Part shown: in pieces, positions 16,524-58,963 of the stretch | Layout: each line of letters opens with the position of its first letter | How positions within the stretch are numbered: the first letter of the stretch is position 1 | Origin: a virus | Lineage: Duplodnaviria; Heunggongvirae; Uroviricota; Caudoviricetes | IMG/VR virus record: IMGVR_UViG_3300005805_000054 | Location: 31,428-95,427 of that record | Strand: one strand, 5' to 3' | Length of the DNA stretch: 64,000 nt | The notes under the pieces: model-generated | The model's input: the letters and a program-made list of their open reading frames with translations, nothing else | Told to the model about the DNA's origin: nothing | Databases searched by the model: none | Translations under genes and position numbers: made by a program

Positions 16524-16552
16524 TTGACAATAAATCATTTTGGGTGTATAAT
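16524..16552 (+). promoter_or_regulatory. early promoter cassette copy (TTGACAATAAAT-N-TATAAT)
   Basis: TTGACA 16524-16529, TATAAT 16547-16552, 17-bp spacer; followed by AGAGG RBS and ATG at 16584. Confidence 0.6.
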
Positions 16553-16583
16553 AGATGTATTGTAACTATTAAAGAGGTTTATC

Positions 16584-17324
16584 ATGGCTGGTAAAGAATA
16601 CTATGAAGGCAGGGATATGGAGAGCAATGTTATTCTCCATAGTCACTTAATCAAGTGTTTGAAATTTCAAACTATTGAAGTACGTGGTACAAACTCAACT
16701 AAAGGGGATGTAGTTGGTGTTGTTTCCGGTGTAGAAACTCCTATCAGTATCAAACACGGTAGTCAGAAAAATACGCAGGTACATTTACCCACGCTACGCA
16801 GTTTTGCTAAAGCTATGAACACACCTAGTGATATTACTGCTATGCTAGAACAATGGCTAGGTGTAGTAAATCAAAATCAATTTGAGGGATGGCTTAATGG
16901 CAAGACCCCGACTAAATTACAACAAAAGTATAAGCGTTTGTTTGCCAAAGATATTCCAAACTGGGATAATGTAGTAAAGTGGTTTAATGACAATCGTAAA
17001 ACACTAGCCGAACTATTAATTCAAGCAATGAATGGTGAGAAGCCGGCAAAGTATTTAGTGTGGGTAAACAAACAGAAAAAGTCATATCAAGTTGTTGATA
17101 TACAAACTCTAGTTGATTGGATTACTACAGATTGCATTTGGGTTACCGGTCCTCGTAATGGAGGTAGTACTTTGCGGTGTGAGTACAAAGGTAAACCAAT
17201 TTTTCATCTACAGATGAAAGGATCAGGTGGTTCGGGTGATGAGTACAATCACAACCCGCAATTTCACATTCATACATATTGGCCTGAAAAATCTATTATT
17301 CATCAAGGTGTTCTTGAGGCATAA
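16584..17324 (+). CDS. hypothetical protein
   Basis: 246 aa ORF with its own promoter and RBS. Confidence 0.5.
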   Translation: MAGKEYYEGRDMESNVILHSHLIKCLKFQTIEVRGTNSTKGDVVGVVSGVETPISIKHGSQKNTQVHLPTLRSFAKAMNTPSDITAMLEQWLGVVNQNQFEGWLNGKTPTKLQQKYKRLFAKDIPNWDNVVKWFNDNRKTLAELLIQAMNGEKPAKYLVWVNKQKKSYQVVDIQTLVDWITTDCIWVTGPRNGGSTLRCEYKGKPIFHLQMKGSGGSGDEYNHNPQFHIHTYWPEKSIIHQGVLEA

Positions 17325-17342
17325 ATACGTGACCGCAATTGT

Positions 17343-17370
17343 TGACAAGTTGCGTTTTAGAAAGTATAAT
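17343..17370 (+). promoter_or_regulatory. sigma70-like promoter (TTGACA-N16-TATAAT)
   Basis: TTGACA 17343-17348, TATAAT 17365-17370. Confidence 0.5.
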
Positions 17371-17375
17371 ACACT

Positions 17376-18629
17376 ATGCCAAAAAATTTAATATTTACCG
17401 AACAAGATTTTTTAAATCAGTTCAACCTACCTAACATTTCATTTACAGATTTTTGTAATAAAATTTGTGTACTTGATGTTATGGATCGTTCAGGTTCATT
17501 CGTTGTACGAAGTGACCTCGATACATTCGTAAACCGTGTCAGTAAAAAAGATGACAGAAAACAACGGTTAAATCTATATAAACAAAATCTATATAAGATT
17601 CTAGTTACAGATGCAAAGTCTACACTAACAGCTTGGTTTAAACGTTATGGTGAACTTAAAGAAAATGTTGACTATTACTTTAATATACCCAATGCTAATA
17701 TTTTAAACAATGATACCTTTACTGGTAGAACAAATAGCAAGTATGGTAAAATTTGTAAAAATATTAACTTTGTAAACTTCTATAATACAAAGAAACTATA
17801 CACGAACGATAGCGAATATACATTCGGCTTAATGCGTGTAATGTTTGAAGAATTCAAATTACGCAACAGTCTAGTGGGTCCTGCATTCTTTGACCATATC
17901 TGTAAGTATACCGATGATTCAGGTCAATTCTGGTTAGATTTTATGATCGGTGCTAATCGTGCTAGTATCTTTAACCCAGCAACATATAAAGGAATACTAG
18001 ACGAAGTATTTACTGGTGAAACTTTGTTTGCTCCGGTCATGGGATGGAATAGCTATCAGATTGCTTTTTATAACAGCAAATTCAAAAACTTTATTGCAAC
18101 AGATGTAATTCCTGATGTAGTAGAGAATGGTAAACTATTACAAGTTGAATATAACAAGTACAAAGATGCTAGTATTTTTGAATTAGCAGAAAAGAATATT
18201 GACTTATATTTGTGCCCGAGTGAACAATTAGACAGTAAACATGATTTTGGTAATAAGTATGCTAATAGTGTTGATGCTGTACTATTAAGTCCACCTTACT
18301 TTGATTTGGAAATCTATCCTAGCGATGACCAAAGTTTCAATAGTTTTCCTGACTATCAATCATGGTTACAAGGTTACTGGGAAGAAACAGTTAAGTTATC
18401 TGTTAAGGTAATGAAGCCCGGCGCTAAGTTTGGTTTTGTTATTAGCAATTATGTTAATAGACAGAAACAAATGACTACTATTAGTGAGGATATGCGTGAT
18501 GTAGTGCTAAAATATCTTACACTTGATAAGCAATATCGTGTACAGTGGAGTGCTATTTCGGGTACAAGACAAGCAAAGAAAACAAGAGGCGGTAACTTTG
18601 AAGATTTATGGGTATTTGTTAAGAAATAA
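17376..18629 (+). CDS. DNA methyltransferase (N6-adenine/N4-cytosine type, SPPY motif)
   Basis: 417 aa; LLSPPYFDLEIY motif IV of amino-methyltransferases. Confidence 0.55.
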   Translation: MPKNLIFTEQDFLNQFNLPNISFTDFCNKICVLDVMDRSGSFVVRSDLDTFVNRVSKKDDRKQRLNLYKQNLYKILVTDAKSTLTAWFKRYGELKENVDYYFNIPNANILNNDTFTGRTNSKYGKICKNINFVNFYNTKKLYTNDSEYTFGLMRVMFEEFKLRNSLVGPAFFDHICKYTDDSGQFWLDFMIGANRASIFNPATYKGILDEVFTGETLFAPVMGWNSYQIAFYNSKFKNFIATDVIPDVVENGKLLQVEYNKYKDASIFELAEKNIDLYLCPSEQLDSKHDFGNKYANSVDAVLLSPPYFDLEIYPSDDQSFNSFPDYQSWLQGYWEETVKLSVKVMKPGAKFGFVISNYVNRQKQMTTISEDMRDVVLKYLTLDKQYRVQWSAISGTRQAKKTRGGNFEDLWVFVKK

Positions 18630-18693
18630 CATTTGACAAAAACTAAATAGTAGTCTATAATAGACACATATCAACACATACCTACTTTCAAAA

Positions 18694-19692: not shown

Positions 19693-19921
19693 CGTTTTAC
19701 AAAAACAATTATACGCAGGTATACTTGCCGTGTTGAATGACCGAGATTCATACTACCAGTCTGGCATTGGTAAGAAGGGTGAATATAATCATTTCAACGA
19801 TAGTGGTAAAGAAGCTATAATGAATTTTGTTGAAACGTTTGCTCCATTAATGTTGAAGCAACAGAACTTAGAATTAGATGAACGTGCAAAAAAGATTATG
19901 TGGGAAGAATTGAAAAAATGA
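19685..19921 (+). CDS. hypothetical protein
   Basis: In-frame ATG overlapping the rnh stop (ATGAGTAA); 78 aa. Confidence 0.4.
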   Translation: MSNVLQKQLYAGILAVLNDRDSYYQSGIGKKGEYNHFNDSGKEAIMNFVETFAPLMLKQQNLELDERAKKIMWEELKK

Positions 19922-20145: not shown

Positions 20146-20146
20146 T

Positions 20147-21383: not shown

Positions 21384-21385
21384 CT

Positions 21386-24960: not shown

Positions 24961-24988
24961 AAAGCCCCAATAATTGGGGCTTTTTTGT
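24961..24988 (+). terminator. rho-independent terminator
   Basis: aaagccccaataattggggcttttttgtg: 8-bp GC stem plus T-tract. Confidence 0.7.
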
Positions 24989-24997
24989 GCCTAAAAT

Positions 24998-25026
24998 TTG
25001 ACAATAAATGGGTAATAGCGTATAAT
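24998..25026 (+). promoter_or_regulatory. early promoter cassette copy (TTGACAATAAATGG-N-TATAAT)
   Basis: TTGACA 24998-25003, TATAAT 25021-25026, 17-bp spacer. Confidence 0.6.
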
Positions 25027-25057
25027 CTATACATAGATTGAAACAAAGGAGTTCGAA

Positions 25058-25306
25058 ATGAAATTTAAAATTCTGTACACTAGCCCAGTTTTCAAAAACG
25101 CTGATGGTTCTGGTCGTCAATTCATGATTCCCTTGAACGCAATCAAAACATATGCAAAGCGTGATGCCGCACTGATGGCAATGATGGAAATGGGTGGCAT
25201 CCATGCTACCCTGACTACTGAATTCATGGCACATCGCAGGACTATGATGTCCGCAAAGCGTAAAATTGAACGTGAAGGTTGGTTCTGCGATACAGTGTCG
25301 GCCTAA
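25058..25306 (+). CDS. hypothetical protein
   Basis: 82 aa; AAGGAG RBS. Confidence 0.45.
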   Translation: MKFKILYTSPVFKNADGSGRQFMIPLNAIKTYAKRDAALMAMMEMGGIHATLTTEFMAHRRTMMSAKRKIEREGWFCDTVSA

Positions 25307-25309: not shown

Positions 25310-25338
25310 TTGACAATAAATCGGTTCGAGTATATAAT
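25310..25338 (+). promoter_or_regulatory. early promoter cassette copy
   Basis: TTGACAATAAATCGG...TATATAATAGAATCTTAAACAGT; TTGACA 25310-25315, TATAAT 25333-25338. Confidence 0.65.
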
Positions 25339-25371
25339 AGAATCTTAAACAGTTAAACAACGGAGTTAAAC

Positions 25372-25629
25372 ATGAAAGCATTAAAAGCATATATCGACAA
25401 GAAGAATCAGTGGAACGCTATTTTCAAAGGTCGTCAATATGAAATCCAAACTTCTAAAGGTCGTCAAGAAGTTGCTGCCTGCATCGATGCTGATCTTAGC
25501 CCCGAGAATTTGACTTGTGATGGCGAATTGCCCCGTAGTCAGGTTCAAGCTAAGTATCGTTCATTGACTAGTGCGGCACGTGATTTGCAAAAGTTGGACC
25601 CATCTGTTAAGTTTTACGAATTCGCTTAA
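25372..25629 (+). CDS. hypothetical protein
   Basis: 85 aa; RBS ACGGAG. Confidence 0.45.
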   Translation: MKALKAYIDKKNQWNAIFKGRQYEIQTSKGRQEVAACIDADLSPENLTCDGELPRSQVQAKYRSLTSAARDLQKLDPSVKFYEFA

Positions 25630-30596: not shown

Positions 30597-30643
30597 ACCA
30601 TCATAATACCGTCAAAGGCATAAATACATGTATGGAGAGTATT

Positions 30644-31426
30644 ATGAAACATACATGTGATTATGGATGCGGCGCAGAGGGTTTTTTCTTTAATGAGAAG
30701 TCAAAAAAATGGTGTTGTTTGGAAAGTGTCAAAAAATGCCCGGGTGTTCAGGAAAAGAAAAAACAGACATTGTTAAAGAAATACGGTGTGACCAATGTAA
30801 GTCAACTTAGTGATATTCAAGAACGGAAGAAAAAAACCTGGATAGAAAAATACGGAGTTGATAACCCATCCAAAGCACCAGAAATAGTACAAAAAATAAA
30901 AGACAAATGGGAAATCATTGATGCCAAACGAAAGGTGACAATGGTTGACAAATATGGTGTAGATAGTTATAATAAGACTACTGAGTTTTCAGAAAGAAGA
31001 AAAGCAACTTGGACTGAAAAATACGGTGTTGACAATCCCACAAAGAATGTAGACATTTTTCATAAGGCGTTTGTATCCAGAGCAAAGTCAGAGTATTCAA
31101 CTAAAACAATGACAATGCCAAGTGGTAAGACAATCAGGTATCAAGGATTTGAGAATCAAGTAATTGAAGATTTATTGAAAGCAGGTATACACGAAGATGA
31201 TATCGTAACAGGTCCAGGTAATGTCCCTCACATTCAATATGAGTTTGAAGGCAAAATTTGTAGATATTACCCTGACATATATCTTCCTAAACTTAATCAA
31301 ATAATTGAAGTGAAGTCGTTATACACTTGGAACAAATACAAACAAAAGAACTTAGCGAAATACAAAGCAACAAAAGAAGCAGGATTTAAGGTAAACATTG
31401 TTATCAAACGAAAAAATGGAAAATGA
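30644..31426 (+). CDS. Cys-rich protein with four KYGVxNxxK repeats; possible homing-endonuclease-type DNA-binding protein
   Basis: N-terminus CDYGCGAEGFFFNEKSKKWCCLESVKKC; repeats KKYGVTNVSQ / EKYGVDNPSK / DKYGVDSYNK / EKYGVDNPTK similar in style to NUMOD-type modules; GGAGAG RBS before the ATG at 30644. Confidence 0.4.
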   Translation: MKHTCDYGCGAEGFFFNEKSKKWCCLESVKKCPGVQEKKKQTLLKKYGVTNVSQLSDIQERKKKTWIEKYGVDNPSKAPEIVQKIKDKWEIIDAKRKVTMVDKYGVDSYNKTTEFSERRKATWTEKYGVDNPTKNVDIFHKAFVSRAKSEYSTKTMTMPSGKTIRYQGFENQVIEDLLKAGIHEDDIVTGPGNVPHIQYEFEGKICRYYPDIYLPKLNQIIEVKSLYTWNKYKQKNLAKYKATKEAGFKVNIVIKRKNGK

Positions 31427-31665
31427 ACAAACGAATTCGAGAACTTCATATGCAGGCGCAACAAGAGGCTTTCAATGAACCAATTGATATTGAAAATTGT
31501 GCAGTAGAAGATATAAAAGGATTCAGTCAACAAGTTTACGAAAAGTTTGCTGAGTTGATTGCTTACGAATGCATCGACCTTGCGCTAGGATCAAGTCATA
31601 GAGAAGATGATATGGGTGCTATCATTGCCAATAAGATTAGAAAACATTTTGGAGTTGAAGAATGA
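31423..31665 (+). CDS. MNERIRE-family small protein (paralog 5)
   Basis: MNKRIRELHMQAQ...KFAELIAYECIDL...RKHFGVEE. Confidence 0.55.
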   Translation: MNKRIRELHMQAQQEAFNEPIDIENCAVEDIKGFSQQVYEKFAELIAYECIDLALGSSHREDDMGAIIANKIRKHFGVEE

Positions 31666-42575: not shown

Positions 42576-43163
42576 ATGAGTCTAGTCCCAATCGTCATTG
42601 AACAAACAGCTAAAGGTGAGCGTAGTTATGACATTTACAGCCGTCTATTGCGTGACCGTGTTATTTTGCTTGAGGGCGAAGTGCATGACCAAATGGCGAA
42701 CTTGATTGTTGCCCAGCTACTGTTCTTGGAATCTGAGGGTGAGAAGGATATCTCAATGTACATTAATAGCCCAGGAGGTAGCGTAACTGCTGGTATGGCT
42801 ATCTATGATTGTATGCAATTCATCAAACCCGATGTGCAGACAATCGTTATGGGACAAGCATGTTCAATGGGTAGTTTGCTTGCTAATGCAGGTGCACCCG
42901 GCAAACGTATGATGTTGCCAAACGCACGACACATGATTCATCAACCCAGTGGTGGTGCCCGAGGTATGCAAAGTGACATTGAAATCAGCTACAAAGAAAT
43001 CACATACTTGAAAAAGCGATTGACTGATATCTATGTCAAGCACAACAGTGCAGGAAAGACATATGAAGAATTTGAACGGGATATGGATCGTGACAAGTTT
43101 ATGAGTGCTGACGAAGCATTAGCATATGGTCTAATCGACAAAATCATCGATAAACGCAATTAA
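42576..43163 (+). CDS. clpP: ATP-dependent Clp protease proteolytic subunit ClpP
   Basis: 195 aa; [34 protein letters not shown] (Ser), [19 protein letters not shown] (His) catalytic-triad context. Confidence 0.9.
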
Positions 43164-43235
43164 ACACACTTTACCCATCTTATAGTCAGTATTTTTCTAA
43201 TCATAAATACAATATGACTAACAGATGGGTAACCC

Positions 43236-46193: not shown

Positions 46194-47201
46194 ATGAAAA
46201 AACTAACAGCATTAGTAGGTGCATTACTAATATCAACGGTCGCATTTAGTGCAGACATCACAGGAGCAGGTGCTACCTTCCCATTCCCGATCTATGCTAA
46301 GTGGGCTGAAGGCTACAAAAAAGCTACAGGCACAGGCATGAACTATCAAAGCATTGGAAGTTCGGGCGGCATTAGACAAATCAACGCAAAGACAGTAGAA
46401 TTTGGTGCTACAGATGCTCCAGTAAGCGGAGAGAATTTAGACAAGATGGGTCAAGTTCAGTTTCCTGCTATCATCGGCGGAACAGTGCCTGTAGTAAACT
46501 TAGACGGATTCAAGCCCGGCGAACTACGCATCACCGGACCTGTTATGGCTGAAGTGTTTATGGGCAATATTAATCGTTGGAATGACCCTAAACTAGTAGC
46601 ACTAAATCCAGGTAAGAATTTGCCTAATACAGAGATAACTATTGTACATCGTGCTGATGGCAGTGGCACAACATTCAACTGGACCGATTACTTGGCTACA
46701 GTCAGTCCAGAGTGGTTACAGCGTGTTGGTCGTGGCGCCGCAGTTAAGTGGCCAGCTGCTACATCAGTAGGTGGCAAGGGCAATGAAGGTGTTGCAGCCA
46801 ACGTCAACAGAATCAAAGGTTCAATTGGTTATGTAGAGTATGCTTATGTTAAGAAAAACAACATGACGTTCCTACAATTACAAAACAAGAGTGGTAAGTA
46901 TGTTAGTCCAGATGACTTAACATTTGCCGCAGCCGCTGACGGTGCTGATTGGTTCAGTGTTCCGGGTATGGGACTGAGTATTGTGGATCAAAAGAATCCT
47001 AATGCTTGGCCAGTAAGTTCGGCAAGTTTTATTATCATGTACAAAGAACCAAAGAACAAAGCTACTAGTGATGAAGTGTTAAAGTTTTTTGATTGGGCAT
47101 TTAAGAATGGTAAGAAAGATGCTGTAGATTTAGATTACGTGCCTTTACCAGATGCACTAACAAAGCAGATCCGTGAGCGTGTTTGGACACAGATAAAATA
47201 A
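46194..47201 (+). CDS. pstS: phosphate ABC transporter substrate-binding protein PstS
   Basis: 335 aa; signal peptide; GAGATFPFPIYAKWAEGYKKATG...YQSIGSSGGI...FGATDAP signature of PstS. Confidence 0.85.
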   Translation: MKKLTALVGALLISTVAFSADITGAGATFPFPIYAKWAEGYKKATGTGMNYQSIGSSGGIRQINAKTVEFGATDAPVSGENLDKMGQVQFPAIIGGTVPVVNLDGFKPGELRITGPVMAEVFMGNINRWNDPKLVALNPGKNLPNTEITIVHRADGSGTTFNWTDYLATVSPEWLQRVGRGAAVKWPAATSVGGKGNEGVAANVNRIKGSIGYVEYAYVKKNNMTFLQLQNKSGKYVSPDDLTFAAAADGADWFSVPGMGLSIVDQKNPNAWPVSSASFIIMYKEPKNKATSDEVLKFFDWAFKNGKKDAVDLDYVPLPDALTKQIRERVWTQIK

Positions 47202-47213: not shown

Positions 47214-47245
47214 AAAAAAGGCCCCAAACAAAGGGGCTTTTTTAT
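47214..47245 (+). terminator. rho-independent terminator
   Basis: aaaaaaggccccaaacaaaggggctttttta. Confidence 0.7.
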
Positions 47246-47254: not shown

Positions 47255-47283
47255 TTGACATTAAATGGATTTGGGCTTATAAT
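47255..47283 (+). promoter_or_regulatory. early promoter cassette copy
   Basis: TTGACATTAAATGG-N-TATAAT; TTGACA 47255-47260, TATAAT 47278-47283. Confidence 0.6.
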
Positions 47284-47313
47284 ACATGTATTGAATCGAT
47301 AAAAGGAACTGAA

Positions 47314-47556
47314 ATGACTGAATTTGAATCTAAGTGCTACGGTATGTCTGAGTCTGATATCCGCGAGCAGTACATGGAAAGTATTACCGCTAAGTTCTCT
47401 GGTCTGGAGATGGTCGTGATGGGCATCATGAGTGACTGCCAAGAAATGATGGCAATGGGTACAGGTCCTCGTTCAGTTGAATACGTTCGTAAACAAATGA
47501 ATGTAGCTAAGTTTATCCTCTCTGAAATGATGGATCAAAAAGAAGCCCAAATTTGA
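47314..47556 (+). CDS. hypothetical protein
   Basis: 80 aa; RBS AAGGAA. Confidence 0.45.
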   Translation: MTEFESKCYGMSESDIREQYMESITAKFSGLEMVVMGIMSDCQEMMAMGTGPRSVEYVRKQMNVAKFILSEMMDQKEAQI

Positions 47557-47581
47557 CAATAAATGGGTTTGGTGCTATAAT
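47553..47581 (+). promoter_or_regulatory. early promoter cassette copy
   Basis: TTGACAATAAATGGGTTTGGTGCTATAATAGAATCTTAGACAGT; overlaps the stop of the upstream ORF. Confidence 0.65.
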
Positions 47582-47613
47582 AGAATCTTAGACAGTAAAG
47601 AAAAGGAAACAAA

Positions 47614-47829
47614 ATGGCAAACTACTCAATGTACACAGGTTTTGGTAACGATGCTGTTGACGCAATCGTGCGTAGTGCAAAAGTACTCAAAATGGAATGG
47701 CCCCAAGTTCTTGCTGAACTCCGTAGTTTGGCTGACCGTTTCCCCGAAGAATTTGGTGAGGCTACTGACACCGCAGTCCGTGAGTGTGTCTATGACGCCC
47801 TAGGCTTTGACACTCCTTTCTATATCTAA
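47614..47829 (+). CDS. hypothetical protein
   Basis: 71 aa; RBS AAGGAAA. Confidence 0.45.
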   Translation: MANYSMYTGFGNDAVDAIVRSAKVLKMEWPQVLAELRSLADRFPEEFGEATDTAVRECVYDALGFDTPFYI

Positions 47830-47840
47830 GGAACTAACAA

Positions 47841-48065
47841 ATGAACTGGTTATACATTCCGGAAATGGACTATGGTAGCGCCCGCCGAAAGTTAATCATG
47901 CACATGTTTGACACCACTCCGGACGCGGCATACTGTGTGAACCGCAAGTATCGCCCGCAAATGAAAAATGATACTGACTTGCGCCGATTGGTGAAGACAG
48001 GCAAGCTGAAACTAAAGCGCATGGGTATGCCAGGCTCCAGATACACATACCTAGTAAAAGCCTAA
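47841..48065 (+). CDS. hypothetical protein
   Basis: 74 aa; RBS AAGGAA. Confidence 0.45.
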   Translation: MNWLYIPEMDYGSARRKLIMHMFDTTPDAAYCVNRKYRPQMKNDTDLRRLVKTGKLKLKRMGMPGSRYTYLVKA

Positions 48066-48068
48066 AAT

Positions 48069-48097
48069 TTGACAATAAATGGTTTTGGGTATATAAT
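48069..48097 (+). promoter_or_regulatory. early promoter cassette copy (near-identical to the copy at 58174)
   Basis: TTGACAATAAATGGTTTTGGGTATATAATAGAATCTTAGACAGTCAACTAAAGGACACAAAATG; 64-bp identity with 58174-58237 except one base. Confidence 0.7.
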
Positions 48098-48129
48098 AGA
48101 ATCTTAGACAGTCAACTAAAGGACACAAA

Positions 48130-48291
48130 ATGCTGAAATCTGAACTTCAACAAGCAATTGACAAACTGAAAGAAGCCCGAGATTTGGTCTATAAAGCATT
48201 GGGTGATACCGATGCAGGAAACATGACTGTTCAGAATATTGAGGCAGCTATTGACGACCTCGAGGCTGATCTTGAATTTATGTTTGGTTGA
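48130..48291 (+). CDS. small hypothetical protein
   Basis: 53 aa (MLKSELQQAIDKLKEARDL...); the stop overlaps the next promoter's -35. Confidence 0.35.
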   Translation: MLKSELQQAIDKLKEARDLVYKALGDTDAGNMTVQNIEAAIDDLEADLEFMFG

Positions 48292-48316
48292 CAATAAATC
48301 CAAACTCTGATACAAT
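48288..48316 (+). promoter_or_regulatory. early promoter upstream of rIIA
   Basis: TTGACAATAAATCC...TACAAT; TTGACA 48288-48293, TACAAT 48311-48316. Confidence 0.55.
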
Positions 48317-48348
48317 ACTTGTATTGACACTGAAAAACAGGAATTTTA

Positions 48349-50508
48349 ATGATTATCAATCATGCACCCCAAAACGAAGCAATCATGTCCAACGTGGGCG
48401 AGATTGGTGAGTTCCGCATTCGCAATAGTGCGAAGGCTTTCAACATTCTGTCCTCAGGTTTGTATGCAAACAAAATCCGAGCAATCGTCCGAGAATTGTC
48501 CTGCAACGCTGTTGACTCACATACGGCAGCTGGCAAACAAAACACCCCCTTTGATGTTCACTTGCCCAACAGTCTCGAACCCTGGTTCTCAATCCGAGAC
48601 TATGGTACTGGTCTGTCGCACGACCAAGTCACTAACATCTACACCACTTACTTTGAAAGTACTAAAACAGCGTCCAATGAATTCATCGGTGCGTTGGGTC
48701 TCGGTAGCAAGTCTCCATTCTCTTACACTGACAACTTCACCGTTACAGCGATTAAAGACGGTGTTAAAGGTATTTACACAGCCTTCATCAACGAACAAGG
48801 TGTCCCGTCTATCGCTAAAATGATGGATGAACAAACTACTGATCCAGCTGGTGTTGAGGTTCGTTTTGCTGTGGAAGAACGTTACGACTTTGACAAGTTC
48901 CGTCAAGAGGCAAAGTCTGTTTACGAATACTTCAAACTGCGCCCAGTAATTTCTGGCAACCAAGAGTTTAAGTTTAAGGATCCTGAGTACAAGGAAAAAG
49001 ATATCATCCCGGGTGTTCACTATCATACTGATGGTCAACGTAGCTATGCTATCATGGGTAACATCAAGTACCCGATTGATGTGCCTAATGCTGAAAAGTC
49101 ACTCGACGGTCTGCAAGGTCTGTTGAGTTGCGGTCTTGTGATGGAATTCAAAATTGGTGAACTCGACTTTCAAGCGTCACGTGAAGGTCTGAGTTACATC
49201 CCGCAAACTATCGAGGCTATCAAAAACAAATTGGTAGCATTGAACGCACAATTGGCAATTCATATCGCACAAGAGGCCGACAAGATTACCAACTTGTGGG
49301 AACGTGCTGATTATTTGGAAAAGCGTCATGTTGACTATTTGTTCTGTACAGCCGTGCAGAAGTATGTTACTGATACAAAGTTTGAATTGTACACTCCACA
49401 GCACAATCGTTGGAATGCAAAGAAGACCTTCAAGTTTGAAGTGAAACATTTGGCAAGTACTTACAACATTGCATTGCGTGGTTTCAGTAAGAGCCCTAGT
49501 TATGCTGCCTGTTCTACACTAAAGCCAACTCATAATTACAACAGTGTAAACGGTCAAGCTGTAACTCGTGATGAATGGGAAATCTCTGTTATCCCCAATG
49601 TACACTTTGTTATCAACGATACTAAAGTTGGTGCTACTGAACGTGCAAAACATCACTGGAAGACTTCTACTGACATTAACAACCAATATAGTTCTAGTGT
49701 GTATGTGATTGAGGCTGCTGACAAATCTAAGCCAATTGACACTAAGGCTTTCTTCACCGCAATGTCTAACCCTCCTGAATCTAAGATTCTGCAGGCTAGT
49801 TCGTTGCTTGAAAAAGAACGTGCAGGTGGTATGGGTCAGAACGTTACTATCATGCGACTGGAAGAAGGTCGTAGTCGTGGTTGGCGTGATCGTGCTGAAA
49901 TGGTATGGCGTGATGGTGGCAAGGCTGGCTCATTTGATGCTAAACAAACTTACTACTACTTGCCATTGAGCGGTTACAAGAATCTTGGTACTGTTGAGGA
50001 TATCAAGACTCTGGAAGTTCACTTGCGTAAGAGTGGTATCTACACTGATCACATTTATGGCGTGCGTAAAGGTGACATTGAAGCTATCAAGGCTCAAAAG
50101 AACTGGGTTAACCTTGACGAACATGTTAAGGGCAAACTGGCACTGTTGGGTCAGGCTGATGTGATGGGACTTGTGAAGCAAAGCATCGGCTGGAAAGATT
50201 TGTATGAGTTCGGAGCATCTAAACTTATCAAGGATGCGTCAAGTCCATATATGATTCTATTCAACACATTCAAGGATGTGAAATCCACAGATGCAAATTT
50301 GCGTCAAAGTCTAGAATGGCTCTGTCGTCAGTATAAGGTTACCAGTCAATCAAACATTGATCCTAGCGCATTGATTGATAAGTATACCAAAGAAGTTGAG
50401 GATGTGTATACCCGATATCCCCTTCTGAAGGCAATTAGTAAATATAACACCGAAGTGAAGGCAATTTCGGATTATATCACTATGGTTGATAAGTATCATC
50501 CTGTTTAA
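48349..50508 (+). CDS. rIIA: rIIA-like protein (GHKL/histidine-kinase-type ATPase fold)
   Basis: 719 aa (T4 rIIA is about 725 aa); N-terminal GHKL boxes: ELSCNAVDSH (N box), DYGTGLS (G1), GALGLGSKS (G2); followed downstream by an rIIB homolog. Confidence 0.65.
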   Translation: MIINHAPQNEAIMSNVGEIGEFRIRNSAKAFNILSSGLYANKIRAIVRELSCNAVDSHTAAGKQNTPFDVHLPNSLEPWFSIRDYGTGLSHDQVTNIYTTYFESTKTASNEFIGALGLGSKSPFSYTDNFTVTAIKDGVKGIYTAFINEQGVPSIAKMMDEQTTDPAGVEVRFAVEERYDFDKFRQEAKSVYEYFKLRPVISGNQEFKFKDPEYKEKDIIPGVHYHTDGQRSYAIMGNIKYPIDVPNAEKSLDGLQGLLSCGLVMEFKIGELDFQASREGLSYIPQTIEAIKNKLVALNAQLAIHIAQEADKITNLWERADYLEKRHVDYLFCTAVQKYVTDTKFELYTPQHNRWNAKKTFKFEVKHLASTYNIALRGFSKSPSYAACSTLKPTHNYNSVNGQAVTRDEWEISVIPNVHFVINDTKVGATERAKHHWKTSTDINNQYSSSVYVIEAADKSKPIDTKAFFTAMSNPPESKILQASSLLEKERAGGMGQNVTIMRLEEGRSRGWRDRAEMVWRDGGKAGSFDAKQTYYYLPLSGYKNLGTVEDIKTLEVHLRKSGIYTDHIYGVRKGDIEAIKAQKNWVNLDEHVKGKLALLGQADVMGLVKQSIGWKDLYEFGASKLIKDASSPYMILFNTFKDVKSTDANLRQSLEWLCRQYKVTSQSNIDPSALIDKYTKEVEDVYTRYPLLKAISKYNTEVKAISDYITMVDKYHPV

Positions 50509-51325
50509 ATAGTGTCCAATCCTTGATGGTTTTCCCGTCAAGGATTTTTCCTAAAAAATGAAGGCTGATATTATATTTTGTTCTAAACTCATACTTGGTT
50601 AAGCATTCGCTAACCCCGGAAGAGTGTTGAAAATGAAATTTAGTCATATCACATCTAGGATTATTTGTACCTATCTTAGCATTACGCTGTGATTGTTTGG
50701 TAATAGGGTTGTTACGCAATTCTATTTGTGATTGACGGAATACAGGATCTTCCCAGAGTTTTCTATGGGCATCTGCTATTTTCTCCGTTACCTCAGGTTT
50801 GTTCCTAGCCTCAGTGAGAAGTTTAATTTGTTGTTGCTTCCATTCACTATCACCCCAATTATCTAGCATAGTATGCTTCTTTACTTTAATGGCTTCCGGT
50901 TTGTTCTGTGCTTCTTTTTGGGCTACAGACCTGTTGAAAAAAGATTCAGGAGTTTTGTTACCTTCAAGCATCCCGTTAATCATTCTTTCTCTTACTTCAG
51001 GTACTGATGTATCAATCGCTTTGCCGTCGGACTTGTTCAAGTAATCTTCTCTTGAAGTGACCTTCAGTCTCTTTAAAACTCTATGTTCCCATAGTCTGGC
51101 TTTTGTTGAATCAACAAATTTTTTGCGGATAATCTTAATATCAGGTTCGCCGTGCTCTTTCACATAATCTGATACATAATTACTGGATGTAAAATAGTCA
51201 ATCCAAAATTCTGAAGGGTGACAGTTTTGTGCGAATCTGACTCCATAATACTTCATCCCGGTTTTGGACCATTTTATAAAGTAGGTATAAGGTGTATAAA
51301 TAGTCATGCTGGTGCTTCCTTTCAA
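50480..51325 (-). CDS. GIY-YIG homing endonuclease inserted between rIIA and rIIB
   Basis: 281 aa; MTIYTPYTYFIKWSKTGMKYYGVRF...EFWIDYFTSS GIY-YIG core; C-terminal basic repeats; the 3' end overlaps the rIIA 3' end. Confidence 0.65.
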   Translation of the reverse strand: MKGSTSMTIYTPYTYFIKWSKTGMKYYGVRFAQNCHPSEFWIDYFTSSNYVSDYVKEHGEPDIKIIRKKFVDSTKARLWEHRVLKRLKVTSREDYLNKSDGKAIDTSVPEVRERMINGMLEGNKTPESFFNRSVAQKEAQNKPEAIKVKKHTMLDNWGDSEWKQQQIKLLTEARNKPEVTEKIADAHRKLWEDPVFRQSQIELRNNPITKQSQRNAKIGTNNPRCDMTKFHFQHSSGVSECLTKYEFRTKYNISLHFLGKILDGKTIKDWTLFKQDDTYQP

Positions 51326-51411: not shown

Positions 51412-51440
51412 TTGACAGAAAACATGTTTTCAGTTATACT
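51412..51440 (+). promoter_or_regulatory. sigma70-like promoter for rIIB (TTGACA-N17-TATACT)
   Basis: TTGACA 51412-51417, TATACT 51435-51440. Confidence 0.5.
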
Positions 51441-52545: not shown

Positions 52546-52569
52546 TAGCCCCTTAGTTGGGGCTTTTTT
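52546..52569 (+). terminator. rho-independent terminator
   Basis: agccccttagttggggcttttttg. Confidence 0.65.
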
Positions 52570-52574
52570 GTGGC

Positions 52575-52603
52575 TTGACAATAAATCAGTTTGGGCGTAT
52601 AAT
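52575..52603 (+). promoter_or_regulatory. early promoter cassette copy
   Basis: TTGACAATAAATCAGTTTGGGCGTATAAT; TTGACA 52575-52580, TATAAT 52598-52603. Confidence 0.6.
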
Positions 52604-52609
52604 ACTAAC

Positions 52610-52801
52610 ATGAACTACAAAATGACAACTTACGAACGCATCAGTGAGAAACTACTGAAGGGTCAGCCCAAGGCAAAGAGATTCGGTCTATTTGACGGTA
52701 AGCGTTTTTGGACAGGAACAAAGAGCCTGCATAGGACAAAGCAATCAAGACTTTGGCGACTTTTCTGGCGATTGAAGGTTGACAGAAAAAGTAAAGTCTG
52801 A
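52610..52801 (+). CDS. small basic hypothetical protein (possibly leaderless)
   Basis: ATG at 52610 lies 7 nt after the -10; the listed ORF start at 52568 would precede the promoter. Confidence 0.35.
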   Translation: MNYKMTTYERISEKLLKGQPKAKRFGLFDGKRFWTGTKSLHRTKQSRLWRLFWRLKVDRKSKV

Positions 52802-52869
52802 TACAATAAGATAAATAAAACAAAGCAACGAGATAGACTCCGCGCTGACATTATTGAAAGGATTTTTCA

Positions 52870-53402: not shown

Positions 53403-53403
53403 A

Positions 53404-54423
53404 ATGTCTAAAAAATACAACACACTGGTCCTTATTGGACGCTTTCAACCCCTGCACAATGCTCACCTTGAGATTATCAAACGTGCCACAGCATTGACTG
53501 ACCAACTGATTATCATCACTGGTTCTGCAAAACAACCTCGCACATACAAGAATCCCTTCACAAGTGCCGAACGTGCAGTAATGATTAAGAACGCTACTCG
53601 CGGTCTTGATATGCAGGTCTACATTGAAGAAAACATTGACACCATTTATAACGACCAAGCATGGGCAGTGCGTGTTCAAGGCATTGTAAGCAAGTACAAC
53701 TTACTTGGTGGCAAGGTCGGTATCATCGGTCACAAGAAAGATGATTCTAGTTTTTACCTTGACATGTTCCCGCAATGGGGATATGAGAATGTAGGACTCA
53801 TTGAATTTTTGAGTGCTGTTGACATTCGTGACCTGTATTTTAAGCGTGATGTTAACATGAAATTTATTCAAGGTGTGGTTCCGGAAACTACATTTGATTT
53901 CTTAGAACAGTTCCGCACTACGCCTGAGTATGAACAAATTATCCGCGAACGTGAGTTTGTAGCTAACTACAAAAAGCAATATGCATCGTTGCCTTATCCC
54001 CCAATCTTCTCTACTGCGGATGCGGTCGTAATTCAATCAGGTCATGTACTGATGATTAAACGCCGTAGCGAACCCGGTAAAGGTCTGTGGGCATTGCCCG
54101 GTGGTTATGTGAATGCTAACACGGACAAGAGTGTAGAGGATGCGGCTATTCGTGAACTCAGAGAAGAAACAATGATTAAAGTGCCCGCACCCGTATTGCG
54201 AGGTAGCATCAAGCGTAGTAAGGTCTTTGATGCGATTGGTCGTAGTCCGCGTGGTCGTATTATCACCCATGCATTTCACATTGAATTACCCGATGGTGAA
54301 CTGCCTAAAGTAAAAGGCAGTGATGATGCTGAAAAGGCACGTTGGGTTCCTATTGCAGAGGTCAAGTCAGAGGAAACTTTTGAGGACCACTACGAAATTT
54401 TGCAACACTTTCTTGGAGCTTGA
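53404..54423 (+). CDS. natV: bifunctional NMN adenylyltransferase / Nudix hydrolase (NadM-Nudix, NatV-like)
   Basis: 339 aa; N-terminus LIGRFQPLHNAHLEII (archaeal-type NMNAT HxxH), C-terminal Nudix box GGYVNANTDKSVEDAAIRELREETMIKV. Confidence 0.8.
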   Translation: MSKKYNTLVLIGRFQPLHNAHLEIIKRATALTDQLIIITGSAKQPRTYKNPFTSAERAVMIKNATRGLDMQVYIEENIDTIYNDQAWAVRVQGIVSKYNLLGGKVGIIGHKKDDSSFYLDMFPQWGYENVGLIEFLSAVDIRDLYFKRDVNMKFIQGVVPETTFDFLEQFRTTPEYEQIIREREFVANYKKQYASLPYPPIFSTADAVVIQSGHVLMIKRRSEPGKGLWALPGGYVNANTDKSVEDAAIRELREETMIKVPAPVLRGSIKRSKVFDAIGRSPRGRIITHAFHIELPDGELPKVKGSDDAEKARWVPIAEVKSEETFEDHYEILQHFLGA

Positions 54424-54424
54424 T

Positions 54425-55407: not shown

Positions 55408-55411
55408 ACAG

Positions 55412-55440
55412 TTGACATTAAAATAGGTTAGTGTTATACT
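55412..55440 (+). promoter_or_regulatory. sigma70-like promoter for nadV (TTGACA-N17-TATACT)
   Basis: TTGACA 55412-55417, TATACT 55435-55440. Confidence 0.5.
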
Positions 55441-55493
55441 GTAAACAAGTCCTAGCGATAGACGCAAGGCAATTTAACTTAAAAGGAACTTTT

Positions 55494-56891
55494 ATGAAAC
55501 TCTCACATAATCCCATTTTGAACACAGATTCCTATAAGTGTTCAATGTTTTTACAAATGCCTCCAGGAACTACTGGTGTTTATTCATACATTGAATCCCG
55601 CGGGGGGCGTTACGATCAAACAGTATTCTTCGGACTACAGGCTTTTATCAAAGAGTACCTACTCGAACCCATTACTCAAGCCGACATTGATGTGGCTGAA
55701 GAAATCCTTACCGCACACGGTGAGCCTTTCAACCGAGCAGGATGGCAATACATACTGGACAAGCACAATGGATACCTCCCGGTTGTCATCAGAGCAGTCT
55801 CTGAAGGAACGGTTGTGCCAGTTAGAAATGTTCTTGCTACAATTGAAAACACAGATCCAGAATGCTTCTGGTTGACTACTTGGCTTGAGACTGCATTGCT
55901 CCGAGCAGTGTGGTACGGTACTACTGTATCTACACAAAGCAAATACATTAAAAACATCATCGCCGAATACTTGGAGAAATCAGGTGACCCTACAACTATT
56001 GACTTTAAGCTTCACGACTTCGGTGCTCGTGGCGTATCTTCTATGGAGTCTGCTGGTATTGGCAGTGCCGCACACCTTGTCAACTTCATGGGTACCGACA
56101 CTATTACTGGTGTTTTGTTTGCTCGTGAATACTACAATGCTGGTATCGCTGGTTTTTCAATCCCAGCCGCAGAGCATTCAACAATCACCAGTTGGGGTCG
56201 TGCAGGTGAAGTAAAAGCATACAGCAACATGGTTAGTCAATTCGGCAAGCCAGGTGCATTGTTGGCAGTTGTATCTGACAGCTACGACATTTACGAAGCA
56301 TGCCGCATGTGGGGCACTGAGTTGAAACAACAAGTGATTGATAGCGGTGCTACAGTTGTTATTCGTCCAGACAGTGGTGATCCAGTTGATGTGTTGCCAA
56401 AGATGTTCCGCATTTTGGCTGAAGGTTTCGGCTACACTACAAACAGTAAAGGCTACAAAGTACTGAACAATGTTCGTGTATTGTGGGGTGACGGTATCAA
56501 CCAATTGGGCATCAAGTCAATTCTTGGGGTGATTGTTGATGTACATGGCTACAGCATGGATAACATTGCATTCGGTATGGGTGGTGCATTGTTGCAACAA
56601 CTTGACCGTGATACACAAAAGTTCGCTATGAAGTGTTCAAGTGCAGAAGTCAACGGTGAATGGGTTGATGTGTTCAAAGATCCAATCACTGACCAAGTGA
56701 AAGCCTCTAAGAAAGGTCGTGTCACTCTTTGGCAATCCGGTGGTGAATTCGCATCTAGTGTTGAAGCACCAAGAGGATGGACTGACAAAGGCATTGGTCC
56801 TTGGACTGATGCTCTGGTGGAAGTATTCCGTGATGGTAAACTCATCCGCGAATACACCTTTAACGAAGTTCGTGCCAACAGCATGAAATAA
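55494..56891 (+). CDS. nadV: nicotinamide phosphoribosyltransferase (NadV/NAMPT)
   Basis: 465 aa from the ATG at 55494 (RBS AAAAGGAA); NPILNTDSYKCSMF N-terminus, HDFGARGVSS, GTDTITGV, RPDSGDPVD signature regions of NAMPT. Confidence 0.85.
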   Translation: MKLSHNPILNTDSYKCSMFLQMPPGTTGVYSYIESRGGRYDQTVFFGLQAFIKEYLLEPITQADIDVAEEILTAHGEPFNRAGWQYILDKHNGYLPVVIRAVSEGTVVPVRNVLATIENTDPECFWLTTWLETALLRAVWYGTTVSTQSKYIKNIIAEYLEKSGDPTTIDFKLHDFGARGVSSMESAGIGSAAHLVNFMGTDTITGVLFAREYYNAGIAGFSIPAAEHSTITSWGRAGEVKAYSNMVSQFGKPGALLAVVSDSYDIYEACRMWGTELKQQVIDSGATVVIRPDSGDPVDVLPKMFRILAEGFGYTTNSKGYKVLNNVRVLWGDGINQLGIKSILGVIVDVHGYSMDNIAFGMGGALLQQLDRDTQKFAMKCSSAEVNGEWVDVFKDPITDQVKASKKGRVTLWQSGGEFASSVEAPRGWTDKGIGPWTDALVEVFRDGKLIREYTFNEVRANSMK

Positions 56892-56893
56892 AG

Positions 56894-56920
56894 AAAGGGG
56901 CACTTGCCCTTTTCTTCTTT
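56894..56920 (+). terminator. rho-independent terminator after nadV
   Basis: aaaggggcacttgcccttttcttcttt. Confidence 0.6.
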
Positions 56921-56984
56921 ACAATAACTCCAATCTCTAGTACAATCTAGTTTCTAAATCGTTAAATCTTTTTGAAAGACACAC

Positions 56985-58043
56985 ATGGCACATTTTCTCA
57001 AATCGGGTAACACATATCAAGTCGCCTCTGATGAAGCAATGGATATTCATGCTCTGTTACCTGCAGGTAACTACACTGTCAAACAAAACCCAATGACAGG
57101 TGCATACTTCTTGGAACACATTGAAGACTTCAATTCCCCATCGAAGATTTATGGCGACTGCCTCAAGAACACTGACAGAGTGATTCAAACTTTCTTGTCT
57201 CGTCCAAATGCAACTGGTGTTATGTTGACTGGTGAGAAGGGTTCTGGTAAGACACTACTGACCAAGAACATTGCAATTGAATTGGCAAAGCAAGGCATTC
57301 CTACTATTGTCATCAATGCTCCTTTGCATGGTGACCAGTTCAATACATTCATTCAAACTATCACGCAACCATGTGCTGTATTGTTTGATGAATTTGAAAA
57401 GACCTATGATCGGGATCAACAAGAATCTATTCTAACACTGTTGGATGGTGTGTTCCCTACTAAAAAGTTGTTTATGTTGACAACTAACGACAAATACCGT
57501 GTTGACTATCACATGCGTAATCGTCCTGGTCGTATCTTCTACATGCTTGACTTTAAAGGTCTGGACACTAACTTCATTCGTGAGTTCTGTGAAGACAATT
57601 TGAAAAATAAGGAATACACTGAAAAGGTTGTGAATATCTCTAGCCTCTTTGCTGAATTCAACTTTGACATGCTGAAGGCATTGGTTGAAGAAATGAATCG
57701 CTACAACGAAACTCCGCAGGAAGCATTGCGTATGCTGAACGCTAAGCCAGAGTTTGATGGTGGTGCAAAGTACGATGTTGAGGTTATTCATCAAGGCAAG
57801 TCTATCACTGATACTAATCGTGATATGTTCGAAGGTAATCCTCTGCAACCCAATGGGGTTGAGATTGGTTTCGATACTAACCCAGACGATGACTCTGCTG
57901 ATTACATCTACAAGACCTTCAATGCTAACGCATTGGTCTCGGTTGATGCGGCATCTGGTAAGTTCATCTTTGAAGATAAGGGAACCCGAGTTATTCTGAC
58001 TAAGGTCAAGAACAAGTCTTACGATTACTTTGCGGCCTTTTGA
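56985..58043 (+). CDS. AAA+ ATPase of unknown function
   Basis: 352 aa; Walker A LTGEKGSGKTLLTK, Walker B VLFDEFEK, arginine-finger region NRPGRIFY. Confidence 0.6.
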   Translation: MAHFLKSGNTYQVASDEAMDIHALLPAGNYTVKQNPMTGAYFLEHIEDFNSPSKIYGDCLKNTDRVIQTFLSRPNATGVMLTGEKGSGKTLLTKNIAIELAKQGIPTIVINAPLHGDQFNTFIQTITQPCAVLFDEFEKTYDRDQQESILTLLDGVFPTKKLFMLTTNDKYRVDYHMRNRPGRIFYMLDFKGLDTNFIREFCEDNLKNKEYTEKVVNISSLFAEFNFDMLKALVEEMNRYNETPQEALRMLNAKPEFDGGAKYDVEVIHQGKSITDTNRDMFEGNPLQPNGVEIGFDTNPDDDSADYIYKTFNANALVSVDAASGKFIFEDKGTRVILTKVKNKSYDYFAAF

Positions 58044-58047
58044 CTAT

Positions 58048-58164
58048 AAAATGAGTACTTTTATATCTGATAAAGGTAAACAAAAGTACTCATTTTGACC
58101 CCTCAGGGGCTTCAAAATCGCTAGAGGTTTCAGGAACATATCTTGATACACTTCTAGCGATTTT
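58048..58164. repeat. intergenic region with two long perfect inverted repeats and a small GC hairpin
   Basis: aaaatgagtactttt (58048-58062) / aaaagtactcatttt (58083-58097), 15/15; cccc-tca-gggg hairpin 58099-58109; aaaatcgctaga (58114-58125) / tctagcgatttt (58153-58164), 12/12. Confidence 0.7.
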
Positions 58165-58173
58165 AGCCATTTG

Positions 58174-58202
58174 TTGACAATAAATGGATTTGGGTATATA
58201 AT
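58174..58202 (+). promoter_or_regulatory. early promoter cassette copy (near-identical to 48069)
   Basis: TTGACAATAAATGGATTTGGGTATATAATAGAATCTTAGACAGTCAACTAAAGGACACAAAATG. Confidence 0.7.
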
Positions 58203-58234
58203 AGAATCTTAGACAGTCAACTAAAGGACACAAA

Positions 58235-58507
58235 ATGCGTACAAAAACTATCATCGACGGCTTCAAAAATTCACAAAAATTCCGTGTAATTTTCAAGGGT
58301 GATGGATCTGAAAACGATGTTGGTATGTATATGACCATCAAGCAAATGACCGAGCAATTTGCTACAGTTACAGCCCGCACAGTTTGCTGGGAAGCATTGA
58401 TGAAATTGTCTTATATGCGTTACAATGCCAAAAAAGACAATGCCCTCATGCCCGTAGGACTCGGTGTTACAATTCGTGGTAAACAAGTCCAAGTTGACTT
58501 GGTTTAA
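58235..58507 (+). CDS. hypothetical protein
   Basis: 90 aa; the promoter cassette plus AAAGGA RBS directly upstream. Confidence 0.5.
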   Translation: MRTKTIIDGFKNSQKFRVIFKGDGSENDVGMYMTIKQMTEQFATVTARTVCWEALMKLSYMRYNAKKDNALMPVGLGVTIRGKQVQVDLV

Positions 58508-58509
58508 TC

Positions 58510-58938
58510 ATGGCGGCATCATCATTGTTAGAAGTGTCCACATTAAAGCCAAATGCACTTTGGCTTAGGAATAGATCAAACCCTATTACGGCACTTAAAA
58601 CTTGCTATAACAAAATTAAAAGTTGTTGCAATTTAAATGTTCGCCGTAAAGAGCGTGGTATTACTCTAGAGGTAACATTTGAACAATGTTTGGAATTGTA
58701 TCATAAACAAAATGGCAAGTGTGCTATATCCGGAAGAGTGTTAGTTGGTAACGCAGGACACGTTGATAAAATTTCAATTGATAGAATTGATTCCACTTTA
58801 TCATATAACATTGACAACATTCAATTGGTTACTGTACAAGTAAACCGCGGCAAAATGGACTTTTTAGAAGAAGATTTTATTGCAATGTGTGCGGCAGTTA
58901 CCGAATTTCAGAAGAAAGTAAAAGCTTCCAAAGGTTGA
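58510..58938 (+). CDS. HNH-like endonuclease domain protein
   Basis: 142 aa; CAISGRVL...HVDKISIDRIDSTLSYNIDNIQLV...VNRGK resembles compact HNH nucleases; the stop overlaps the next promoter. Confidence 0.4.
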   Translation: MAASSLLEVSTLKPNALWLRNRSNPITALKTCYNKIKSCCNLNVRRKERGITLEVTFEQCLELYHKQNGKCAISGRVLVGNAGHVDKISIDRIDSTLSYNIDNIQLVTVQVNRGKMDFLEEDFIAMCAAVTEFQKKVKASKG

Positions 58939-58963
58939 CAATAAATCGGTTTGGGTATATAAT
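58935..58963 (+). promoter_or_regulatory. early promoter cassette copy
   Basis: TTGACAATAAATCGGTTTGGGTATATAATAGAATCTTAGACAGTTAAATAAAGGACTTCAAAATG. Confidence 0.65.

Follow-up and report, generated by a model that had tools for sequence, protein, structure and literature searches.

Repeated regulatory cassettes of the promoter-early-stem-loop (PeSL) type have been described in the T4-type phage pairs RB49/phi1, PST/T4 and nt-1/KVP40, and the idea that short regulatory cassettes serve as joints for gene shuffling rests on these three cultured pairs (PMC2839356, PMC4122927). For RB49, the PeSL minicircle crossover is reported to map inside the cassette. A family of cassettes of this kind is found in a 64,000-nucleotide stretch of the IMG/VR virus record IMGVR_UViG_3300005805_000054 (positions 31,428 to 95,427 of the record; this whole stretch is called the window, and coordinates are counted from its first letter). 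The reading that suits these cassettes best is an early promoter of the host sigma70 type joined to a short leader without structure, and it is likely that they act as preferred recombination joints in an uncultivated phage.

Like the PeSLs, the cassettes are repeated and intergenic, with an A/T-rich stretch that holds an upstream stop codon, and they have a near-perfect TTGACA-N17-TATAAT as in RB49/phi1 (the promoters here are known from sequence) followed by a Shine-Dalgarno (SD) sequence and an ATG. They are also clustered among ORFans in variable regions, beside insertions, deletions and replacements between relatives, and in some copies a stem-loop lies upstream of the -10 or overlaps it. 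They differ in that the stem-loop or terminator is not integral, that the leader has an invariant start-proximal block, and that the cassette sequence is kept across a whole uncultured clade and not in one phage pair. The PeSL carriers are T4-type, whereas the T4-type ancestry of the carrier studied here is unproven.

The early promoters of large lytic phages such as T4 are numerous, co-oriented, very strong and of the sigma70 type. Their consensus is extended in a way specific to the family, an A-rich stretch lies upstream, and they drive small host-takeover genes; the cassettes are alike in these respects. The -35 boxes of T4 resemble GTTTAC, while the hexamers of the cassettes are the E. 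coli consensus itself. A further difference from the T4 early promoters is that conservation here runs on into the transcribed leader. In PST/T4 the -35 is TTTACW (PMC4122927). The morons of lambdoid phages are similarly single genes that bring a promoter of their own, at times with a terminator, and that are present in some relatives and absent from others, but they lack a common flanking repeat, whereas every unit here opens with the same 30-64-bp sequence (PMC2839356). The attC cassettes of integrons, an analogy drawn in PMC2839356, are alike in forming arrays of small open reading frames (ORFs) that are divided by a repeat of about 60 bp and vary in content between relatives; the repeat studied here differs in having no imperfect inverted-repeat structure and in being a promoter that points into each gene. 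No integrase turned up in the window, where no search aimed at integrases was made.

The window contains 11 matches to TTGACAATAAATSG with up to two mismatches, against 2.1 expected, and five matches to TATAATAGAATCTTAGACAGTYAA with up to three mismatches (25310, 47553, 48069, 58174 and 58935), against 0 expected. The original prediction counted about 11 copies; the ten on the + strand stand (Table 1), and the eleventh match is a - strand overlap at 58167. No eleventh copy of the family was found in the 64-kb window, the nearest candidate being 55412 (TTGACATTAAAATAGG...TATACT). The spacer is 17 bp in 10/10 copies, as predicted, and TTGACA-N17-TATAAT is perfect in nine of them, with TACAAT in 48288. 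On the + strand of the window there are 15 perfect TTGACA-N17-TATAAT sites and 21 with up to one mismatch, and on the - strand 0 and 1, respectively, while dinucleotide shuffles of the window give 0.02 perfect sites and 0.6 with up to one mismatch. In the window the cassettes, consisting of promoter plus leader, are 35-62 bp long, and exact stretches common to different copies reach 47 nt. The predicted identity of the copies at 48069 and 58174 over 64 bp was confirmed at 63 positions, from the -35 through the ATG, and a comparison of the ORFs behind these two copies found no similarity. All copies aim at an ATG at a fixed distance. The SD was predicted to be AAGGA(A/G); AAGGA was found in 6/10 copies, with AAGAGG, ACGGAG or CAGGAA in the others except for the SD-less 52575, and the SD lies 7-9 nt before the ATG in 9/10 copies, the leaderless 52575 being the exception. 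The driven ORFs are small, as had been claimed, other than the 719-amino-acid (aa) rIIA behind 48288 and the 246-aa ORF behind 16524.

The 5' part of a cassette is an A-rich stretch that usually includes the stop codon of the preceding ORF. It is followed by a -35 that matches the consensus and is extended to TTGACAATAAAT, by a 17-bp spacer with a loosely kept 3' half (GGnTTTGGGTA) and by a consensus -10. A leader of about 27-30 nt, without secondary structure, then leads to an AAAGGA-like SD and the ATG. Two leader classes are told apart by an invariant start-proximal block (..CTTAGACAGT; class A) and by a dyad over the -10/start region (class B). The class A leader AGAATCTTAGACAGT occurs in five of the ten window copies, all without a dyad, and the other five have different leaders. 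Clear -10/start dyads are found at 47255, 48288 and 24998 (Table 1), 16524 has an imperfect dyad over the same region, and 52575 is leaderless. The leaders are unstructured, with a minimum free energy (MFE) of -0.1 to -3.5 kcal/mol and z about 0, and an Rfam search of the leader gave no match, so a structured or known RNA in the leader was rejected. The -35 TGA (within TTGACA) is the stop codon of the preceding ORF at 47554-47556 (ORF 47314-47556, cassette 47553), 48289-48291 (ORF 48130-48291, cassette 48288) and 58936-58938 (ORF 58510-58938, cassette 58935). In the leaderless copy (52598-52612), the ATG at 52610 is 6 nt past TATAAT and there is no SD, and the mRNA of ORF 52610-52801 would be leaderless because of this position of the ATG; related contigs often show this layout (TATAATACACTTATGAAC...).

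The cassette is kept across an uncultured clade. The exact 21-mer TATAATAGAATCTTAGACAGT was found in at least 118 IMG/VR contig stretches, contigs of 230-524 kb among them, and a 29-mer core with one free position was found in at least 118 IMG/VR contigs. The 21-mer was not found in 185,579 prokaryote genomes, on which ground a host or prophage origin of the cassette was rejected, and the cassette was not found in cultured phages by blastn. A looser pattern of the core matched only six contigs of metagenome-assembled genomes from unrelated taxa among the prokaryote genomes, and a literature search for the motif gave nothing relevant. Synteny with the window, at 65-95% nucleotide identity, is seen for many related contigs, and in related contigs the whole cassette precedes many different genes. 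The elements kept in the relatives are the A-rich stretch, TTGACAATAAAT, the spacer GGnTTTGGGTA, TATAAT, the leader, and AAAGGA followed by ATG. Further leader classes in the clade are ACTTGTATTGA / ACATGTATTGA, ..ATACACTGAGAAAACGGAG and leaderless copies, whose ATG is at the 7th base after the -10. For the cassette-driven genes, Pfam gave no family, and matches to PHROG were only to families of unknown function.

The blocks of the cassette are under selection. In syntenic pairs, the upstream coding sequence has diverged by 13% and the downstream one by 15.5%, compared with 0.1% for the -35 hexamer, 0.7% for ATAAAT, 0.3% for the -10 hexamer, and 28.6% for the 3' 11 nt of the spacer. The hypervariability of the spacer was considered as proof of gene conversion and rejected in this role, as its mean divergence of 28% equals the 33% divergence at codon position 3. 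The pairs that appear near-identical owe this to one conserved island, about 350 bp long, outside which the genomes have diverged by 20-38%. In one orthologous cassette, which lies before ATGACTACAGAATTC... (relatives L003, L064, L095, L104, L050 and L073), the flanks hardly differ from -200 to +150, and inside this island the 3' half of the spacer differs at 5/11 positions and the linker between SD and ATG at 2-3/7. Recurrent spacer variants occur in the cassettes preceding ATGACTACAGAATTC, and some of them make an extended -10. Short-patch conversion, selection on the level of expression or effects of assembly may lie behind these differences.

In line with the modular shuffling put forward in the original prediction, one and the same cassette is found between many different neighbouring genes across the relatives. 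There are 280 distinct cassettes with the TAGACAGT leader, and these stand in 175 upstream contexts and before 89 downstream genes, in 214 combinations; the homologue of the gene at 58235 is found behind 11 upstream contexts, and that of 58997 behind 10. The gene adjacency that the window shows in the three regions named in the original prediction is kept in 0/14, 0/10, 0/17, 0/3, 1/23 and 0/13 loci. A cassette was present between 33 of 96 rearranged unique gene pairs and between 4 of 49 conserved ones (Fisher p = 5e-4). The conserved block from ClpX to ClpP (37.4-43.2 kb) is without a cassette, and past it every relative has a different array of small cassette-led genes. The window segments 43.2-47.2 kb (a 956-aa ORF plus PstS) and rIIA to 58 kb are absent there in several relatives, and homologues of the window genes at 25.4, 47.3, 47.6, 58.2 and 59.0 kb adjoin each other in other phages.

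Cassette-bounded indels between related phages, which had been proposed as a check, were looked for and found, with their ends at cassette edges. A segment of 423 bp (58507-58929, with ORF 58510-58938) is absent from L038 and L116, and this gap stops 1-5 nt short of the -35 of cassette 58935. Another of 462 bp (47826-48287; ORF, cassette, ORF) is absent from L066, and here the gap end is exactly the -35 of cassette 48288. L066 also has an extra ORF between cassette 48288 and rIIA that is bounded by a duplicated stretch of 15 nt spanning SD and ATG.

The location of the exchange points was approached through mean distances over independent groups, for the 3' half of the spacer (11 nt) and the 3' part of the leader (12 nt). 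In syntenic pairs, these distances were 2.08 for the spacer and 1.16 for the leader. They were 3.07 and 2.98 where the upstream gene was the same and the downstream gene new, 3.48 and 2.87 where the gene was the same and the upstream context new, and 3.82 and 3.94 in unrelated pairs. It follows that the interior of the cassette has only partial linkage to each of its flanks. Neither a promoter that moves with its gene nor a promoter that stays with the upstream gene fits this linkage alone, and the linkage fits exchange points that are spread over the cassette and its edges. A crossover between spacer and leader, suggested at the level of pairs, was rejected, since it was inflated by repeated pairs and weakened over independent groups.

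In the proposed mechanism, the host sigma70 RNA polymerase would fire the cassette promoters right after infection, with transcription starting about 7 nt past TATAAT, at the position that the ATG occupies in leaderless copies. Cassettes, together with their edges, would be preferred joints for homologous or microhomology recombination, and small promoter-equipped genes would be swapped, inserted and deleted among related phages, as proposed for PeSLs. The near identity over 30-64 bp in dozens of copies, together with the UvsX- and UvsW-like proteins of the relatives, argues for cassettes that act as recombination joints; the T4-style recombination system needs only short homology (as cited in PMC2839356). 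That the cassettes are mobile and early is an inference. Our verdict is that they are PeSL-like in function and context, and that most rearrangements took place without a cassette.

Several observations weigh against cassettes as joints and favor a reading in which they are only promoters. According to this reading, accessory early genes each come with a strong promoter, in the manner of moron-type accretion, and the cassettes mark the boundaries of the units and mediate nothing; the units would join by illegitimate recombination, by events linked to homing endonucleases, or by ordinary homologous exchange in the flanking genes. A cassette is absent from 63 of the 96 rearranged junctions, so its enrichment may only mirror the accessory nature of cassette-led genes. 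While the cassette-bearing junctions of the window are all broken in relatives, many cassette-free ones, including many tight gene-gene junctions, are broken too. The regions 24.9-26, 47.2-48.3 and 58.1-59 kb were predicted to be prone to recombination, and their adjacency is indeed broken in relatives, but the cassette-free regions at 20-21, 26-29 and 59-62 kb are equally plastic and mosaic. The indel ends examined lie at a stop codon, at the first base of the -35 or at an ATG, that is, at the edges of a cassette and not inside, which also fits the illegitimate joining of promoter-plus-gene units, and the window holds four homing-endonuclease-like ORFs. Non-orthologous copies in one locus resemble each other only slightly more than copies from different loci do (13.4 vs 14.8 of 39 sites), and concerted evolution, or homogenisation within a genome, is therefore weak. 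However, if the cassettes were only promoters, the spacer should track the gene, and yet its distance for the same gene with a new upstream context is close to that of unrelated pairs and far from that of syntenic ones. The leader is still partly common when the upstream gene is the same and the downstream gene new (2.98 vs 3.94 in unrelated pairs), and the cassette is enriched about 6-fold (as an odds ratio) at rearranged junctions. A purely promoter role is a tenable but rather unlikely account of these data.

A different reading is that the conserved sequences serve a dedicated regulator, with class A (A/T)TAGACAGT as a tag on the DNA or on the 5' end of early mRNA, and the class B dyads as operators through which a phage factor would time early expression or shut it off. 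When cassettes were gathered by their promoter core alone, (A/T)TAGACAGT stayed constant while the 6 nt past the -10 varied (AGAATC, ACATAC, CATTAC, ACAATC, AGAGTC). This block begins about at the expected transcription start, and its distance to GGA is fixed in the listed cassettes. Among the non-A cassettes, 48% carry dyad arms of 5 bp or longer over the -10/start region, compared with 17% in shuffles, the dyads being centred 3 nt past the -10, and TACAAT goes with a mirrored G (19/32 vs 22/95). These short, A/T-rich dyads are too weak as terminators. Against a dedicated regulator, no candidate factor was identified, the class A copies have no dyad, and the leader has neither RNA structure nor an Rfam match. 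An antisense partner for TAGACAGT was rejected, as no - strand copy is present in the window. Promoter escape alone can also constrain initial transcribed sequences. The regulator would account for the conservation but leave the gene shuffling unexplained, and it could coexist with cassettes that act as joints; we regard it as improbable. It is equally doubtful that (A/U)UAGACAGU, at its fixed distance from the SD, marks the early mRNAs throughout the clade with a shared 5' tag that is read by a dedicated phage or host factor, such as a translational switch, a nuclease or a factor that determines non-canonical initiation. If true, the (A/U)UAGACAGU tag would provide global control of early expression, and the hypervariable spacer and the SD-ATG linker would tune the output of each gene.

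The relatives are all metagenome assemblies in which repeats of 45-64 bp, with exact stretches of up to 47 nt common to the cassette copies, could yield some chimeric joins, but it is very unlikely that the shuffling as a whole is an artefact of assembly across these repeats, as the same joins and spacer variants recur in many contigs of different samples, indels such as 58507-58929 are present in several loci, reads of 100-150 nt span a cassette, and one window protein is found unchanged, in the same neighbourhood, on the independent assembly of run SRR2962413.

Only a minority of copies have the stem-loop of a PeSL. In the window, three of the ten copies (24998, 47255 and 52575) directly follow an intrinsic terminator, as the original prediction had stated, and 58174 follows long hairpins; the fold of 58030-58180, between an AAA-ATPase-like gene and this cassette, has an MFE of -54.8 kcal/mol (z -8.8). 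The six other window copies start 0-3 nt past the upstream stop codon or overlap it. Across the clade, a terminator-like hairpin was found upstream of 22 of 366 cassettes (about 6%), compared with 1.7% at random positions, and an MFE of -20 kcal/mol or lower in the 80 nt upstream was found for 14% of cassettes, compared with 6% in controls. In 517/635 cassettes (about 81%), an ORF ends within 20 nt of the -35 or inside it, which leaves no room for a stem-loop, and in 262/635 the -35 TGA closes an open frame of 70 nt or more. The composite of promoter and stem-loop that defines the PeSL is therefore a minority state here, and the stem-loop is not integral to these cassettes. The predicted PeSL configuration thus holds for the promoter sequence, the SD and ATG, the ORFan setting and the indels, and does not hold for the stem-loop (4/10 copies in the window).

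Other hairpins were noted near the cassettes. The consensus ahead of TTGACA is ..ccAAAat, and a CCCAAA..TTTGGG stem around the -35 was rejected, as permuted pairings scored equally (4.00 vs 3.96) and no covariation was found; stems of 8-9 bp of this kind occur in only 5/114 copies. The GAGTAC...GTACTC hairpin at 58047-58164 resembles terminator-like hairpins of relatives. A GTTGYR-AAAAA-YRCAAC hairpin with compensatory C-G/T-A changes lies before about 10% of the relatives' cassettes, 10-25 nt 5' of the -35 (for example in L001, L008, L012, L044 and L078), and beside 0 window cassettes.

The carrier is probably a large, lytic, uncultivated freshwater phage, and as judged by its sequence it is without a close cultured relative. 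Against 50,697 phage records, neither megablast of 46-60 kb nor blastn with one cassette yielded a match, and protein identities to cultured phages are at most 36%. The window codes for rIIA, which is 30-36% identical to its counterparts in KVP40-like phages and T4, as well as for rIIB, an RNase H-like 5'-3' exonuclease and an ATP-dependent DNA ligase, whose best matches are at most 33% identical and come from Bacillus-group phages. In the relatives, UvsX-like proteins were found in 28 loci and UvsW-like proteins in 23 (e.g., L129, L097, L169, L113, L099 and L100), gp41-like and DexA-like proteins are also present, and the T4-like proteins of the relatives are 25-28% identical to those of T4. 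No T4 structural or replisome core genes were found in the sampled DNA, the fetched loci covering early regions only. An enrichment of the T4 late-promoter motif TATAAATA was rejected, with 3 occurrences in the window against 5.6 expected. The T4-type label given to the phage is thus unproven, resting on rIIA/rIIB and on UvsX-, UvsW- and gp41-like genes at 25-36% identity.

Other genes of the window include a 7-deazaguanine cluster (FolE ... QueE-like, 245-7025) and a number of auxiliary genes: UvdE (13268-14299), ClpX-like (37462-38664) and ClpP (42576-43163) genes, a PstS-like phosphate-binding protein (46194-47201), and the genes for NAD (nicotinamide adenine dinucleotide) salvage, NMNAT/NUDIX (53404-54423) and NadV (55431-56891). 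One homing-endonuclease-like ORF (5392-6174) lies inside the 7-deazaguanine cluster, and another (15477-16520) has its stop codon 3 nt before the start of cassette 16524. The perfect consensus promoter at 30945 is inside a further one (30632-31426). That at 50480-51325 (- strand) lies between rIIA and rIIB, and since these two genes are 17 nt apart in L007 and L066, it is a lineage-specific insertion; a separate 11/12 promoter at 51412 is now ahead of rIIB, beyond the insertion. The palindrome ATGGGTAACCCAT (43224-43238) spans the start codon of the 956-aa ORF (43236-46106). Stretches like CTATGGGTAACCCATG come after some promoters in relatives L009 and L056. A homologue of ORF 25372-25629 is placed after ClpP in L011. 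The coordinates of the cassettes, of the structures next to them and of the remaining promoters, all of which belong with the cassettes to one + strand promoter set, are collected in Table 1.

Table 1. Cassettes, adjacent terminators and hairpins, and other promoter sites of the window.
Feature	Position	Strand	Description
Cassette	16524..16583	+	Non-A leader (TATAAT-AGATGTATTG..), SD AAGAGG, drives 246-aa ORF 16584-17324
Intrinsic terminator	24962..24982	+	AAGCCCCAATAATTGGGGCTT + T-run, directly 5' of cassette 24998
Cassette	24998..25057	+	7+2+7 dyad AATCTAT-AC-ATAGATT over -10/start; drives 82-aa ORF 25058-25306
Class A cassette	25310..25371	+	AGAATCTTAAACAGT, 1 mismatch; SD ACGGAG; drives 85-aa ORF 25372-25629
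Intrinsic terminator	47219..47239	+	3' of PstS-like gene, directly 5' of cassette 47255
Class B cassette	47255..47313	+	12-bp palindrome AATACATGTATT overlaps -10; drives 80-aa ORF 47314-47556
Class A cassette	47553..47613	+	Extended -10 (TGC-TATAAT); drives 71-aa ORF 47614-47829
Class A cassette	48069..48129	+	Drives 53-aa ORF 48130-48291; within 47826-48287 segment absent from L066
Class B cassette	48288..48348	+	TACAAT, dyad CAATAC-TT-GTATTG; drives rIIA 48349-50508 (719 aa)
Intrinsic terminator	52547..52564	+	3' of rIIB, directly 5' of cassette 52575
SD-less cassette	52575..52609	+	Drives 63-aa ORF 52610-52801; kept in L066
Structured intergenic stretch	58047..58164	+	Two 15-16-bp hairpins + CCCCTCAGGGG; 5' of cassette 58174
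Class A cassette	58174..58234	+	Drives 90-aa ORF 58235-58507
Class A cassette	58935..58996	+	Drives 160-aa ORF 58997-59479
Perfect TTGACA-N17-TATAAT outside the repeat family	17342..17370	+	Same + strand promoter set
Further non-family perfect TTGACA-N17-TATAAT sites	18633, 28898, 30945, 35738, 61048	+	
Non-family 11/12 promoter sites	31758, 51412, 52779, 55412	+	

In summary, an element of this kind is already known, and what is new is its presence in an uncultured lineage and the strict conservation of its sequence across the clade. The repeats are borne out as sigma70-type promoter cassettes of consensus sequence ahead of ORFans, and the 21-mer and 29-mer are specific probes with which this phage clade and its early genes can be fished from metagenomes. 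The data also temper the idea of the cassette as a joint, as most gene-content changes in the clade need no cassette and the terminator half is dispensable. Hundreds of natural copies are available in the clade, on at least about 200 contigs, and breakpoints, linkage within the cassette and junction reads are therefore testable at population scale.

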